Positions 834-5,291 of a stretch of DNA of 11,910 nt are shown here, piece by piece (the first letter of the stretch is position 1; each line of letters starts with the position of its first letter). The notes under the pieces are model-generated. The model had not been told where the DNA came from. It saw only the letters and a program-made list of their open reading frames with translations, and made no database searches. The position numbers were made by a program, and so were the translations under genes. This DNA comes from a virus: UHGV virus genome UHGV-0361702. One strand, written 5' to 3'.

Positions 834-2210
834 TCATACGTCCGCCCCTTGTGCATATCGTCTGCCACGCGCAGCAGGCGCATTTGATGCTGTGCAAATC
901 TGTCTGGCTTCATCCTGGTCACATGCAACAAAGTGTCCGTTGCAGAACCGCTGGTAAACCGTACCAAGTGAGCCAAAACGGTTTTTCGTCACAATGATTT
1001 CAGCAAATGGCGCGGCGCTACTGTTCTCGTCATATACCGCTTCCCGATAGAGCATGATGATTGAGTCTGCGTCCTGTTCAATGCTTCCTGAATCACGCAA
1101 ATCTGCGTTTGTCGGGCGTTTGTTTGGTCGCTTCTCAACATCGCGTGAAAGCTGACTTAGGGAGATAACAGGCGTTTTCAGGTCTTTCGCCATCGCCTTA
1201 AGGCTTCCTGAGATGTGGGCAATTGCGAGGTCGTTGCGATCTGCTTTCGGCTTCTCAATCAGGCCAAGATAATCCGCCATGATGAGTGACAGGTTTGGAT
1301 TTTCCTGTTTGTGTCGTTCTGCGATTGAGCGTATTTCTTCGACCGATAACCGCGAGGCATCGACTACCCATACATCCAAATCTGCAAGCTGACTCATGCC
1401 GTTAGCAACACGCGCCCAGCCTTCGTCATCCATCGATGCAGGATTTCGCAGTACGCTAACCGACATCCTCCCGGCGTTGGCAATGCTTCGCTCTGCAATC
1501 TGCAATGCGCTCATTTCCATTGAGAAAATCAATACCCCGCGCCGGACGTCAGAACCAGGAATAACGCGGCTTGCAACGCCTTCGGCAATCTTCAGCGCCA
1601 GCTCGGTTTTCCCCATACCAGGACGAGCAGCGATTATCACCAGGTCTTCTGCGTTCATCCCTCCGGTGATGGCATCAAGTTCTTCGATTCCGGTCTTCAG
1701 GGTATCGGACTCTTCTCCGTTCCTCAGACGCCTGTCAAGCGTGTCAGTGTAGTCAGTAATGATTTCCCCTAACCGTACAGGTTTAACCTCGTCACGGGGC
1801 TTTCTGATGGCTGAAAGACGCTTTACAAGCTCATCCATCGCCTGACTCGATGCGTCGATGGTTCCGCTCTGAATTGGTTCACGCATTTCATCCATGATTT
1901 CCAGCACCAGACGGCGGTGATAGTTATCCGCGACCATTCCGGCATATCCCTTCAGGTTTGCGGCACTCGGGCAGTTTTTGCTGGTCATCAGGATTGCGGT
2001 GAAATGCTCCTCTCCGCACGCCTCGGCAACCATCAGCGCGTCGATTAGGTTTCTGTTTCTCGCCTGCTTGCGAATAACCTCGAAGGCTTTCCGGTAGAGC
2101 GGAATTGAAAACGCTTCCGGCTCCAGCGTTGCAAGAACGTCACTGGCGGTTGGAGTTAATCCACCAATCAGCAGGCCACCGATAACGCTCGCTTCGATAT
2201 CCTGTCTCAT
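834..2210 (-). CDS. DnaB-family replicative DNA helicase (P22 gene 12-like)
   Basis: 458-aa ORF with Walker A motif GMGKT ([15 protein letters not shown]) and overall DnaB-like organisation; start overlaps the stop of the upstream O-like gene; sits where lambdoid phages place P or gene 12. Confidence 0.9.
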
Positions 2211-3154
2211 GCAATCCCCCTGTCTGCAAACTTCCCTTCCCGAACTCCCGTTAACGAGTCTTCTCTCAGCAGGTAATCAAAATCAGCCGTCCAGCCCGTG
2301 TCGTTGTCTCCGAAGTAAAACGGCTTGGCCTGATGCACAAACGCCCTGACATACGCTCTGAAACCGTCCACGTTTGGCGTTTTCAGTTGCGGGATGATTT
2401 TCTTCAGGCGGCGTTTTCGTTTCTCGTTGACCGCAACAGCGTGTGGCAGTCTGTCACCGACTTCGGTGTTGTAGGCGTTCAGGAAGGATTCGTAGTCGAT
2501 TCGTTCTGCCTTGCGACGTTCAGGTTTAACCTGCCCATCGCCTCCCCCATTGGGGGGTAGGGGGGTATTATTTATATTCTTGTTAATACCTTCTTGTTCA
2601 TGATGTGCGGTTGTTTGTGCGGCTTCATGTGCGCTTTCATGTGCGGCATGTACGCTGAAAGCCGCGCTATTGCTGGCTTCATCATGTGCGGCATCATGTG
2701 CGGTTGTTTGTGCGGCTTCATGTGCGGGTAAATTGTCCATTTTTTGAGCATATTCATGGTAATTTGTGATGGTTATCACACGGCCTTTTTGCTTCTCTCC
2801 ATCAATGGAGATCATCCCCTCTTTCACAAAAACCTGAAGCATCCGCTCAACCTGATCACGGCTTGCTGGCTTGCCATGTCTGTCGCATAACTGAAGACCT
2901 AAATCAGCTGCTGTCACAACCAGTTGACCGGGTTGCAGATGCCATTCATGACCTTTGAAATTCGCTTTGTATGGCTTTCTGGCGGCATTCAGGAGAAGGT
3001 TTTCCCACAGGGTGCGAAGATAAACATCTTTCGCCCATGACTGTTTCAGAATGCTCCGGTACAACGGAATGTAACCAGTTTTCTGGTTCTCCATCCTGTT
3101 GCTCCTGCGCTCGTGTGCGGCGCTGAAATCGTAGATTTTTGCTGTATTGCTCAT
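2207..3154 (-). CDS. replication initiator protein (lambda O / P22 gp18-like) with internal origin iterons
   Basis: 315-aa ORF starting MSNTAKI (lambda O starts MTNTAKI), immediately upstream of the helicase gene. The central linker is a His/Ala-rich repeat ([17 protein letters not shown]...) encoded by the iteron DNA. SD-like GGCAGGTAG precedes ATG at 3154. Confidence 0.75.
2598..2728. repeat. origin of replication iterons (about 8 copies of an 11-12 bp unit CATGTGCGG) inside the O-like gene, flanked by an AT-rich segment at 2565-2600
   Basis: Direct repeats ending at 2610, 2622, 2634, 2647, 2692, 2703, 2715, 2727 (gatgtgcgg / tttgtgcgg / catgtgcgg variants). A 31-bp exact direct repeat ATGTGCGGTTGTTTGTGCGGCTTCATGTGCG occurs at 2603-2633 and 2696-2726. 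AT-rich stretch follows in gene orientation, as in lambda ori. Confidence 0.6.
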
Positions 3155-3156
3155 AA

Positions 3157-3429
3157 CTACCTGCCTTGACGAAAGACCTTAAGAACATCGTTAAACTGAC
3201 TTACGGATATGTCTTCTTTGAGAAGCTTTTCCAGAAATGCGTTTGGAATGAACGTATATCCCTCCTCTTTTGGTAGAGACGGGAGCAACGCCCTCGCCTC
3301 AGCCTTCAGAAGCTCAGTTCTGGCAACTTTCACAAAAGAGATTTGAGTTCTTTCATCAATGGAACGAAGGAAGCGCAAACGCTTAGCTTCTTTGTGTGTA
3401 TCAGGTGGATTAAAGCCTTTGTTTCGCAT
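3157..3429 (-). CDS. hypothetical protein (90 aa) inserted between cII and the O-like gene
   Basis: ATG at 3429-3427 (complement) preceded by SD GAGGT with 7-nt spacing; stop TAG ends 2 nt before the O-like ATG (coupled). Sequence MRNKGFNPPDTHKEAKRLRF... not recognised. Lambda has only about 30 bp here. Confidence 0.45.
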   Translation of the reverse strand: MRNKGFNPPDTHKEAKRLRFLRSIDERTQISFVKVARTELLKAEARALLPSLPKEEGYTFIPNAFLEKLLKEDISVSQFNDVLKVFRQGR

Positions 3430-3440
3430 ATAATTACCTC

Positions 3441-3507
3441 GTTGGATGTTGTTAAAATTCCATTTGTATTTGATCAGAACGCTCGGTTGCCGCCGGGCGT
3501 TTTTTAT
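3441..3507 (+). ncRNA. oop: OOP-like antisense RNA (antisense to the cII 3' end)
   Basis: Plus-strand TATAAT at 3429-3434, then a GC-rich hairpin (3480-3499) followed by TTTTTTATT (3500-3508). The 3' segment GTTGCCGCCGGGCGTTTTTTATT matches the remembered lambda OOP terminator. It overlaps the last roughly 55 nt of cII on the opposite strand. Exact 5' end is inferred. Confidence 0.5.
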
Positions 3508-3745
3508 TGGTGAGAATCGAAGCAACTTGTCGTGCCAATCGAGCCATGTCGTCGTCGACAACACCCCATTCAAGAACAGCAAGCAGCATTGAGAACTTTG
3601 GAATCCAGTCCCTCTTCCACCTGCTGATCTGCGACTTATCAACGCCCACAGCTTCCGCTGTCTTCTCAGTTCCAAGCATTGCGATTTTGTTAAGCAACGC
3701 ACTCTCGATTCTTAGAGCCTCGTTGCGTTTGTTTGCACGAACCAT
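3452..3745 (-). CDS. cII: CII transcriptional activator (lambda cII-type)
   Basis: 97-aa product MVRANKRNEALRIESALLNKIAMLGTEKTAEAVGVDKSQISRWKRDWIPKF... is nearly identical to lambda CII as remembered. The six-frame ORF begins further upstream (3832), but the internal ATG at 3745 gives the canonical 97-aa protein. Confidence 0.9.
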   Translation of the reverse strand: MVRANKRNEALRIESALLNKIAMLGTEKTAEAVGVDKSQISRWKRDWIPKFSMLLAVLEWGVVDDDMARLARQVASILTNKKRPAATERSDQIQMEF

Positions 3746-3756
3746 ATGTAAGTATT
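3723..3756 (+). promoter_or_regulatory. pRE-like CII-dependent promoter (TTGC-N6-TTGC CII box) directed toward cI
   Basis: TTGC at 3723-3726 and 3733-3736 separated by 6 nt (cgTTGCgtttgtTTGCacgaaccatatgtaagtat), same arrangement as lambda pRE, overlapping the cII start codon on the opposite strand. Confidence 0.6.
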
Positions 3757-3804
3757 TCCTTAACAAATAAGAAGTTATGCGCATCAACTTATGCGCGTTG
3801 TATT

Positions 3805-3846
3805 CCCGCATTTCGGCGGGAATGAGGACCATGACTGTTAAAGAGC
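3805..3846 (-). promoter_or_regulatory. nutR (boxA GCTCTTTAACA + boxB hairpin CCCGCCGAAATGCGGG)
   Basis: On the minus strand between cro and cII: boxA (3846-3836 complement) then a 5-bp stem / 6-nt loop hairpin (3820-3805 complement). Identical boxA and boxB occur at nutL on the plus strand. Confidence 0.65.
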
Positions 3847-3853
3847 AATTTGC

Positions 3854-4039
3854 TTATGCCGCTTTGCGGTAAGCGCTTTCTTGATACTTCAGGGCGCCAG
3901 CTGTAACGACTTCCAGTCGATAGGCGTCTTTCTCTGGGATGACTTCCTTCCACTGAGAGACTGCTGCGTCGCTAATGCCTAACGCTTTAGCTACAGCACG
4001 CTGGGTTCCGAAGTGGTCGATAACATCTTTCTTGTACAT
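3854..4039 (-). CDS. cro: Cro repressor (P22 cro-type)
   Basis: 61-aa HTH protein (QRAVAKALGISDAAVSQW) divergent from cI across the operator region; SD GGAG (complement of 4046-4049) 6 nt upstream of ATG. Confidence 0.85.
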   Translation of the reverse strand: MYKKDVIDHFGTQRAVAKALGISDAAVSQWKEVIPEKDAYRLEVVTAGALKYQESAYRKAA

Positions 4040-4053
4040 AGACTCGCTCCGAA

Positions 4054-4119
4054 ATTAAAGAACACTTAAATTATCCACTAAAGGAATCTTAAGTCAAGTT
4101 TATTTAAGATGTCTTAACT
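4054..4119. promoter_or_regulatory. oR operator cluster (three 18-bp sites) with divergent pR (minus) and pRM (plus)
   Basis: Three sites fitting ANTNAAG-N4-CTTNANT: 4054-4071 ATTAAAGAACACTTAAAT, 4077-4094 ACTAAAGGAATCTTAAGT, 4102-4119 ATTTAAGATGTCTTAACT. pR on minus strand: -35 TTGACT (complement of 4092-4097), 16-bp spacer, -10 GATAAT (complement of 4070-4075). pRM position (ending next to the cI ATG at 4120) is inferred, not precisely located. Confidence 0.7.
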
Positions 4120-4770
4120 ATGAAAACTCAATTGATGGGAGAGCGCATTCGCGCTCGGAGAAAAGAACTCAAGATCAGGCAGGCCGCACTTGGAAAGATG
4201 GTCGGCGTGTCTAATGTTGCCATATCTCAGTGGGAACGCTCTGAGACAGAGCCAAATGGAGAGAATCTTCTCGCCCTGGCTAATGCGTTGAAGTGTTCCC
4301 CTGACTATCTGATGAAAGGAGAGGAAAGTCTTTCAAACATTGCCTATCACAGTAGGCATGATCCAAGAGGGTCATACCCTCTGATTAGCTGGGTGAGCGC
4401 AGGATGCTGGATGGAAGCTGTAGAACCATATCATAAGCGTGCAATAGATAACTGGTACGATACAACCGTAGACTGTTCAGAAGATTCGTTTTGGTTGGAC
4501 GTGAAGGGAGACTCAATGACGGCTCCGGCCGGTCTCAGTATCCCTGAAGGAATGATAATACTCGTCGATCCTGAAGTAGAGCCGCGTAACGGGAAACTGG
4601 TAGTTGCAAAGCTCGAAGGAGAAAACGAGGCAACTTTCAAGAAGTTAGTTATTGATGCAGGCAGGAAGTTTCTAAAACCACTTAACCCACAATATCCGAT
4701 GATCGAGATCAACGGAAACTGCAAAATCATCGGCGTAGTTGTCGATGCAAAACTAGCAAACCTTCCATAA
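4120..4770 (+). CDS. cI: prophage repressor, P22 C2-type (CI family; N-terminal HTH, C-terminal LexA-like S24 autopeptidase domain)
   Basis: 216-aa protein with HTH (QAALGKMVGVSNVAISQWE), Ala-Gly cleavage site (VSAGCW), catalytic Ser (GDSM) and Lys (VVAKLEG). Closely matches the P22 c2 repressor as remembered. Confidence 0.95.
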   Translation: MKTQLMGERIRARRKELKIRQAALGKMVGVSNVAISQWERSETEPNGENLLALANALKCSPDYLMKGEESLSNIAYHSRHDPRGSYPLISWVSAGCWMEAVEPYHKRAIDNWYDTTVDCSEDSFWLDVKGDSMTAPAGLSIPEGMIILVDPEVEPRNGKLVVAKLEGENEATFKKLVIDAGRKFLKPLNPQYPMIEINGNCKIIGVVVDAKLANLP

Positions 4771-4795
4771 GGGGGCATTCGCCCCTTTTTTTTTA
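4771..4795 (+). terminator. intrinsic terminator immediately after the repressor gene
   Basis: GGGGGCATTCGCCCC hairpin followed by a run of nine T. Confidence 0.7.
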
Positions 4796-4837
4796 TTTCC
4801 TTTAAAAATCAAAGCTAAACTTAAGTTACGAAAGAAA

Positions 4838-4891
4838 ATTTAAGTTTTCTTCAAAAATACTCTTGACCATTAATTAAAGAGATCTTAAATT
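4838..4891 (+). promoter_or_regulatory. oL operators and pL promoter
   Basis: Operator-consensus 18-mers at 4873-4890 (ATTAAAGAGATCTTAAAT, same half-sites as the first oR site) and 4838-4855 (ATTTAAGTTTTCTTCAAA). -35 TTGACC at 4863-4868, 17-bp spacer, -10 TAAATT at 4886-4891. A third oL site was not confidently located. Confidence 0.6.
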
Positions 4892-4937
4892 TAAGCCATC
4901 AGCAGGACGCTGGAAGCCAAACGGAAAAGATTGGCAG

Positions 4938-4977
4938 GCTCTTTAACATTGATGGGATTGTCCCGCCGAAATGCGGG
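4938..4977 (+). promoter_or_regulatory. nutL (boxA GCTCTTTAACA + boxB hairpin CCCGCCGAAATGCGGG)
   Basis: boxA at 4938-4948; boxB 4962-4977 (stem CCCGC/GCGGG, loop CGAAAT) in the leader between pL and N; identical to the nutR elements. Confidence 0.65.
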
Positions 4978-5291
4978 AACCAAAGAGTAGTTGGCTTTGG
5001 GGTGACGTGAAGTGCAGCTGCACGACGGCAACCGGAAGATAAGCACCCGGCGCGTCACCGCCAAAGTCAATTCCATAGGCGTTATGCAGCCGCCACCATA
5101 TTCAAGAAAGCTGCACAAGAGGTAGGAGGATTTATGTGAATACTTACATTCAATTGAGAGATTAATTAAATAGAACTGATCGAGCAGAGTCCATAAAGGC
5201 TCATAAATGCTCTTCCATCCCCGTCTAATTGGCGGGGAAGGAAACCACTTTGTAATAAAAAAATTCCAAAGTTGTTTCATCGGAGGTCAAC

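Follow-up and report, generated by a model that had tools for sequence, protein, structure and literature searches.

A conserved small gene between cII and an O-like replication initiator gene encodes a protein with partial sequence similarity to the O N-terminal domain

Introduction

In lambda, and in the standard model of lambdoid replication initiation, O comes directly after cII. In P22-like phages, HK97-like phages and many Stx2a-converting phages, a small gene coupled to O precedes it. The virus genome UHGV-0361702 (11,910 nucleotides, one strand; hereafter the window) carries an ORF for 90 amino acids (ORF90) between cII and an O-like gene. This raises the question of whether ORF90 is a gene at all and, if so, what its product has to do with the initiator encoded next to it. 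The layout is an ordinary one and holds no surprise, and we consider the locus modestly interesting, as it offers a testable hypothesis. Among the three families of small gene that occupy this slot, ORF90 is the most informative, because part of it appears to be related to or derived from O.

Results

ORF90 is a protein-coding gene under purifying selection

Positions 3100-3520 of the window match Enterobacteria phage CUS-3 (CP000711.1) at 100% identity; CUS-3 is a P22-like prophage carried by E. coli K1 strain RS218. ORF90 and its neighbors in the early right operon, on the minus strand, are arranged as follows.

4039-3854, minus strand: cro
3452..3745, minus strand: cII, lambda-type, 97 aa (PF05269, E 5e-48; 293/302 nt identical to lambda)
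3436..3440, minus strand: Shine-Dalgarno (SD) sequence of ORF90, GAGGT, 6 nt before the ATG (read from sequence)
3157..3429, minus strand: ORF90, 90 aa, stop included in the coordinates; phrog_2519 member
3160..3167, minus strand: SD sequence of the O-like gene (AAGGCAGG), inside the last ORF90 codons (read from sequence)
2207..3154, minus strand: O-like replication initiator, 315 aa (PF04492, E 3e-15; phrog_345, E 4e-100)
2210-834, minus strand: DnaB-like helicase

ORF90 starts with the ATG at 3429-3427, ends with the TAG at 3159-3157 (minus strand), and encodes a protein that reads MRNKGFNPPDTHKEAKRLRFLRSIDERTQISF...FRQGR in translation. The cII stop codon (3454-3452) lies 22 nt upstream, and the ATG of the O-like gene (3154-3152) follows 2 nt past the ORF90 stop. 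The first-pass annotation had described a translationally coupled 90-aa ORF between cII and the O-like gene, and its coordinates, SD sequence and stop spacing are all correct.

ORF90 matches the phrog_2519 profile with an E value of 1.9e-57 (192.8 bits), residues 1-90 aligning with positions 1-90 of 90, and this significant full-length match makes it a member of that family. Homologues at 41-80% identity retain frame and length, with core motifs kept down to 41%, and indels among them are in frame. Mean pairwise differences at codon positions 1, 2 and 3 are 0.36, 0.25 and 0.60, giving variability in the order 3>1>2, and the third-position excess is not limited to the ends of the gene. Among diverged copies, in which synonymous sites are near saturation, dN is 0.1-0.46 and dN/dS, where computable, is 0.08-0.22. 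The SD region is also retained across homologous loci, as GAGGT or GGAGT followed by AATTAT. The profile match, the kept frame and length, the dN/dS values and the codon-position pattern together place ORF90 far beyond chance; it is a real protein-coding gene under purifying selection. A lack of conservation in related prophages had been named at the outset as grounds for dismissing the ORF, and the wide occurrence of homologues, with dN/dS of 0.08-0.22, clearly settles this point in its favor.

Family members range from 59 to 93 aa and are spread over prophages of about ten enterobacterial genera, the hosts of homologues being E. coli, Salmonella, Scandinavium, Pseudescherichia, Serratia, Cronobacter, Klebsiella, Providencia and Proteus. 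ORF90 DNA is present in 279/5426 complete E. coli genomes (∼5%). The GenBank feature table of CUS-3 has no CDS at ORF90. The same protein, identical or 98-99% identical, is annotated as 'hypothetical' in JEP4, Gally, HF4s, Kapi1, TL-2011a and Stx2a phage 981509, and 48 more records of Stx2a-converting phages contain an identical ORF, with no feature at the match. Among the E. coli matches listed, the PGAP name is hypothetical protein. The phrog_2519 proteins of these phages (Kapi1_024 and the CDS of JEP4, Gally, HF4s, TL-2011a and the Stx2a phages) are 98-100% identical and likewise lie between cII and O. The sequence, the ORF and the family are therefore already in public databases, and ORF90 is a catalogued hypothetical gene. 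Its partial O-like motif has also been noted before: the annotation of Kapi1_024 records phrog_2519 together with the CDD Phage_rep_O motif, and one Salmonella homologue is named 'replication protein' by PGAP. Literature searches on CUS-3, Kapi1, phrog_2519 and the cII-O interval returned no statement about ORF90, and the databases and literature searched record no function for phrog_2519. Kapi1_024 (98.9% identical) is absent from the Kapi1 genes listed as undetected by RNA-seq (PMC12922286), which lends slight support to transcription of ORF90.

ORF90 holds the position of the first gene after cII

Two predicted elements on the opposite strand bear on the start of ORF90.

3429..3434, plus strand: predicted pO -10, TATAAT, overlapping the ORF90 start (read from sequence)
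3441..3508, plus strand: predicted OOP-like antisense RNA, ∼68 nt, covering the 3' end of cII

The overlap between the ORF90 start codon and the predicted pO -10, pointed out in the first-pass annotation, is confirmed: TATAAT spans 3429-3434 and the ATG 3429-3427, the first T of the former being the complement of the A of the latter (one base in common). The -10 is perfect, the best candidate -35 (TGGATT, 3406-3411) has 3/6 matches, and pO was not called in a consensus promoter scan. The motif AATTATATG is retained in CUS-3 and in loci L004, L005, L009, L012, L013, L099 and L101. Further along the plus strand, a stem-loop at 3476-3503 followed by a T run forms an OOP-type terminator, and cII with the 3' part of oop is 97% identical to lambda. 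The start site of the predicted RNA was placed by analogy with lambda OOP, which starts GUUGAUAG, 7 nt past the -10. A search of 2000-5000 against Rfam returned no RNA family. As a prediction, then, the locus has the lambda-type pO/OOP arrangement, with a leftward promoter whose -10 lies over the start of the post-cII gene and a terminator in the 3' end of cII.

In lambda, cII ends at 38653 and O starts at 38686, an interval of 32 nt that agrees with the ∼30 bp first quoted. The sequence around the lambda O start is ...GGAGTCATTATGACA, and the pO -10 on the opposite strand, CATAAT, includes the complement of the O ATG. In P22, CATAAT likewise lies over the ATG of orf48. Because the overlap of -10 and start codon is found in both lambda and P22, it represents the ancestral layout, and ORF90 holds the position of first gene after cII. 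High identity to lambda stops at the last cII codons and resumes for 22 nt at the start of O (TTATGAGCAATACAGCAAAAAT versus lambda TTATGACAAATACAGCAAAAAT), where the start of the O-like gene (3131-3157) has 20/22 nt of the lambda O start (MTNTAKILNF). A decayed -10-like sequence, CATAAC, lies on the plus strand at this second start (3152-3157), which is consistent with an old event in which a second O-type start came to lie behind the first.

ORF90 is always followed by an O-type initiator gene

The SD sequence of the O-like gene lies within the last codons of ORF90, and translational coupling of the two genes is therefore expected. The junction, ...CAAGG(C/A)AGGTAGnnATG, is retained in CUS-3, L004, L005 and L096, and with one substitution in L009 (CAGGGCAGGTAG) and L101 (CAAGGAAGTTAG); in other family members, the two genes overlap as ATGA or ATGGCTAA/G. 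Across ∼14 distinct lineages, the next gene downstream of the ORF90 homologue is always an O-type initiator gene, which begins 2 nt past the stop or shares its first 4 or 8 nt with the homologue.

So close a junction, with the stop 2 nt before the O ATG and O in the -1 frame relative to ORF90, could be taken to mean that the two are made as one protein via programmed frameshifting or readthrough. However, there is no slippery heptamer near the stop, and every downstream O has its own ATG, SD sequence and complete N-terminal domain. Moreover, the frame differs among family members, the 2-nt gap and ATGA giving one frame and ATGGCTAA another. We rejected such a fusion because the frame relation is not conserved, and regard it as extremely improbable.

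The other neighbors of the family are less constant. In most lineages, cII (PF05269) lies 19-28 nt upstream of the ORF90 homologue. Providencia loci have a short family member and O, no cII, and a Cro-like HTH gene directly upstream; in Proteus, another small ORF lies between cII and the homologue. The helicase varies across family loci: some have a DnaB-like one, Stx2a phages one of 797 aa, and others a Toprim/AAA_25 protein. At least four types of O DNA-binding domain, the lambda type included, and several C-terminal types are found downstream of the family, and ORF90-family sequence does not track O type; in Klebsiella variicola, for instance, a 41%-identical member is followed by an O whose N-terminal domain is of the CUS-3 type. 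All 57 phage records with a full-length CUS-3-type O also carry ORF90, and HK97 and ST104 have the same O C-terminal domain and no ORF90.

Among 80 near-identical IMG/VR loci, recurrent mosaic breakpoints, at which homology to CUS-3 is lost, fall upstream at 3514, 3762 and 3846-3862 and downstream at 2692, 1608 and ∼806. These sites correspond to gene or domain boundaries. On the upstream side they are a point within cII just upstream of the OOP terminator, the start of cII and the end of cro; on the downstream side, the iterons of O, the middle of the helicase and its end. None of the 80 loci (80/80) has a breakpoint in the block that runs from the OOP terminator through ORF90 into the O N-terminal domain, and the smallest block common to them is 3503-2692 of the window. 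The first-pass annotation had seen in the overlap of -10 and start codon a cII/OOP block fused directly to a foreign gene. Given the uninterrupted block in these loci and the like overlap at lambda O and P22 orf48, that view is not supported.

Given its place downstream of cII, one might ask whether ORF90 serves the lysis-lysogeny decision together with cII or OOP, for instance through an effect on how stable or active CII is. The spacing of 19-28 nt from PF05269 cII in most lineages and the presence of predicted pO at the 5' end of ORF90 are consistent with this. Yet the Providencia loci keep the short member and O and lack cII, the Proteus locus has another ORF between cII and the family member, and many of the 80 IMG/VR loci break at 3514, inside cII, such that the rest of cII has been swapped independently, which never happened to the O N-terminal domain. 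We therefore think such a role improbable.

A separate observation concerns the CUS-3 record, in which cII is given as 126 aa starting at 3832. The lambda-identical cII of 97 aa starts at 3745, and the start in the record is probably too far upstream.

The O-like gene contains a probable replication origin.

2597..2739, no strand assigned: iterons, probable replication origin within the O-like gene, 12-nt period, core CATGTGCGG, at least 7 copies

The core has 9 matches versus 2.6 expected, clustered at 2602-2727, and the array encodes a His/Ala-rich linker of the O-like protein. The array is very probably the replication origin, and its placement is that of the lambda origin. A search for iteron copies within ORF90 found none. 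One iteron-like 9-mer, CGTGTGCGG (one mismatch), lies at 3112-3120 in conserved codons of the O leader (AAHER); with 2.6 such matches expected per window, it is compatible with chance. This leader, MSNTAK(I/V)YDFSAAH.RRS.RMENQK, is conserved in the two 'RMENQK-leader' types of O DNA-binding domain found downstream of ORF90 homologues, one of CUS-3 and L009 and the other of L004, L005 and L013. In lambda O, TNTAKI is a ClpX recognition signal.

The C-terminal third of ORF90 resembles the start of the O N-terminal domain

An AlphaFold2 model of ORF90, built with 18 family members, has a mean pLDDT of 84 and predicts a helix at residues 10-51, a hairpin at 54-59 and helices at 63-71 and 76-86. 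Two segments can be distinguished.

3277..3402, minus strand: ORF90 residues 10-51, one long predicted alpha-helix (AlphaFold2)
3166..3267, minus strand: ORF90 residues 55-88, predicted beta-hairpin and two helices, O-like (PF04492, TIGR01610, BLASTP, AlphaFold2)

In its second segment, ORF90 matches positions 6-39 of PF04492 (Phage_rep_O), a domain of ∼95 positions, with an E value of 0.048; its score of 14.6 bits does not reach the gathering threshold of 28.7 bits. The same part of the profile is matched by 16/18 family members (best E 5.2e-5), and TIGR01610 (phage_O_Nterm) by 10/18. In BLASTP, residues 55-88 align with residues 26-59 of lambda O (E 5e-4), and ORF90 also matches the O-like phrog_678 (E 0.009). 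ORF90 and the O N-terminal domain have in common the motif G-Y/F-x-x-I/L-x-N...L...D-L/I-S/T-x-x-Q-F...L. When eight O N-terminal domains were aligned by hand and this alignment was compared with the family profile to profile, the match was in register and not significant (E 0.21), and the case for homology rests on the Pfam, TIGRFAM and BLASTP results. Judged from these sequence matches, homology links residues 55-88 to the opening ∼35 positions of the O N-terminal domain, and ORF90 can be classed as a fragment homologue of PF04492 and not as a member of the domain family. The protein that had at first seemed unrecognizable thus belongs to phrog_2519 and matches, in its C-terminal third, the start of the Phage_rep_O domain.

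The helix-turn-helix (HTH) and wing of the O domain are absent. ORF90 ends ∼10 residues past the first domain helix, the model has no third helix, and neither the recognition helix nor the iteron-binding wing of a winged HTH is found. With these elements missing, ORF90 cannot read iterons in the manner of O. In all family members, the conserved core stops at F86; the tails beyond it vary (RQGR, DPRGIE, DQRRSKK, REASNNG), and their codons overlap the ribosome-binding region of the O gene. Fold searches and a sequence search of the PDB with ORF90 returned nothing useful. Among the PADLOC defence models, there was no significant match, the sole hit being to JetB (E 0.021, 13 bits).

Could ORF90 simply be inert, a 5' remnant that an earlier O gene left behind when the replication module was swapped, and a relic kept for pO and ribosome delivery, its protein sequence being irrelevant? 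Much of the layout suits this idea: the ORF90 start sits as the lambda O start does relative to pO/OOP, the C-terminal third resembles the O N-terminus and ends before the HTH, the start of the O-like gene keeps 20/22 nt of the lambda O start with the decayed CATAAC (3152-3157) included, and the coupling geometry is conserved. An ORF needed for ribosome delivery alone, however, would not conserve its protein sequence, and ORF90 has a dN/dS of 0.08-0.22 along its whole length with synonymous sites near saturation, a third-position excess that is not confined to the ends, and a length and core motifs that are retained to 41% identity in many genera. This selection signature disfavors the relic, which we consider a poor explanation.

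Other small genes occupy the same slot in related phages

ORF90 had been called an extra gene, which it is relative to lambda only, as P22, HK97 and epsilon34 carry a small ORF in this place. P22 orf48 (48 aa, phrog_1913) and HK97 gp53 and epsilon34 gp49 (53 aa, phrog_1331) lie in the same slot between cII/c1 and an O-type gene, and share 8-14 nt with the beginning of that gene. In the P22 annotation, the oop promoter spans the start of orf48, as predicted at ORF90. ORF90 shares the defining features of this positional class: it lies between cII and O, it starts under the predicted oop promoter, and its end abuts the O start. A layout of cII, small gene and O is hence very ordinary, and ORF90 represents a third, longer family in the slot. 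The genome paper on epsilon34 places gene 49 in the replication gene region, with no function assigned (PMC2629481).

ORF90 has no match to phrog_1913 or phrog_1331 at E≤0.01. In a pairwise hhalign comparison, residues 9-26 show a weak resemblance to P22 orf48 (E 0.0022, 18 columns), and an orf48-like ORF of Proteus gave an E value of 0.0077. A likeness between this segment and orf48 (phrog_1913) is suggestive only. In the PHROGs database, phrog_1913 is labelled 'tail protein', though P22 orf48 is an early-operon ORF between c1 and gene 18; the label looks like an annotation error.

Two loci show further variations on this layout. A Proteus contig (Logan SRR26920633; L104, 3332-3680) has two small overlapping ORFs before O, one of 58 aa in the P22 orf48 family (phrog_1913, E 9e-8) and one of 59 aa that is a short member of the ORF90 family. 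These sequences hint, on a thin basis, that ORF90 may join two modules found elsewhere as separate genes. In Klebsiella phage Mulock (L010, 1704-2501), a gene for a 265-aa 'DNA binding protein' lies between cII and O, and there is no ORF90; the O N-terminal domain of Mulock and the CUS-3 type share 81% identity.

Discussion

We suggest that ORF90 assists the O initiation module as an accessory protein and works by contacting other proteins, and give this reading a probability of about 0.5. As read from the sequence, ORF90 would be transcribed rightward from pR after cII. Its own SD sequence would drive translation, and ribosomes would then be passed straight to the O-like gene. The product would have a long N-terminal helix (10-51), followed by a hairpin and two helices (53-86) that resemble the segment of O preceding the HTH. 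Such a protein would bind O, bind a partner that recognizes the N-terminal segment of O, or mimic that segment, and the contact would tune the assembly, availability or stability of the O-origin complex. We infer both the binding to O and the effect on replication. Several results count against this reading: HK97 and ST104 share the O C-terminal domain and do without ORF90, the profile-profile comparison with O was not significant (E 0.21), and the fold searches returned nothing.

ORF90 is paired with four O N-terminal types, and a specific interface would therefore need a surface common to all O types. That ORF90 does not co-vary with O type speaks against a tight interface specific to one type and makes a host partner a serious alternative. 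In the extreme, ORF90 would be a host-directed accessory protein, for example a host take-over or anti-defence factor, that has no relation to O and is simply carried along by the early right operon. The protein is small and early, and neither an enzymatic nor a DNA-binding domain can be detected in it. Its sequence varies independently of O type, and two other small ORF families, phrog_1913 and phrog_1331, use the same slot in other phages, all of which would suit such a role. On the other hand, adjacency and start/stop coupling to O are found in every lineage, whatever the neighbors, ORF90 has partial homology to O, and the defence models gave no meaningful match (JetB, E 0.02). A role wholly unrelated to O is, in our opinion, unlikely, though it deserves to be kept in mind.

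As to origin, the family probably descends from a lambda-type O gene, whose 5' end was later kept under selection. We favor truncation because of the decayed CATAAC and because the O-like C-terminal third ends at one common point. A profile search of 1.8 billion representatives found no full-length O with an ORF90-like leader. The search for an ancestor (by profile, and word-seeded at E≤10) returned only small proteins of 32-164 aa and two very long repetitive ones, which we took to be spurious. As no full-length ancestor survives in the databases searched, the truncation is something we infer.

A bolder version of the accessory-protein reading can be put forward tentatively, and may well prove wrong. 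ORF90 would be a domesticated fragment of O, made up of the pre-HTH segment and a long helix, that serves as a mimic or adaptor controlling the assembly or turnover of origin-bound O. It would add a regulatory layer that lambda lacks, with orf48 and gp53 as alternative solutions to the same task. If ORF90 does modulate O, the replication of prophages in ∼5% of complete E. coli genomes would be affected, and possibly their output on induction. Stx2a-converting phages are among the prophages concerned, as is CUS-3, a phage that modifies the K1 capsule.

How does ORF90 compare with known systems? Residues 55-88 align in register with the segment of the O N-terminal domain, in lambda O and its relatives, that precedes the HTH. 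Compared to O, ORF90 has ∼1/3 of the domain and lacks the HTH, the wing and the C-terminal domain that recruits the helicase, and its 54-residue leader is absent from O proteins. The small ORFs of P22, HK97 and epsilon34 are about half the length of ORF90, belong to other PHROGs and have no O-like C-terminal unit, and gp53 and gp49 have no similarity to it. In concept only, ORF90 can be likened to the short pi forms of plasmid R6K and the Tn5 inhibitor, truncated derivatives that regulate the full-length protein. In each case, a fragment that has an interaction surface, without the DNA-binding part, would be made beside the full-length protein. Unlike these products, ORF90 is a separate, widely diverged gene and not an alternative product of O, so the parallel is one of analogy.
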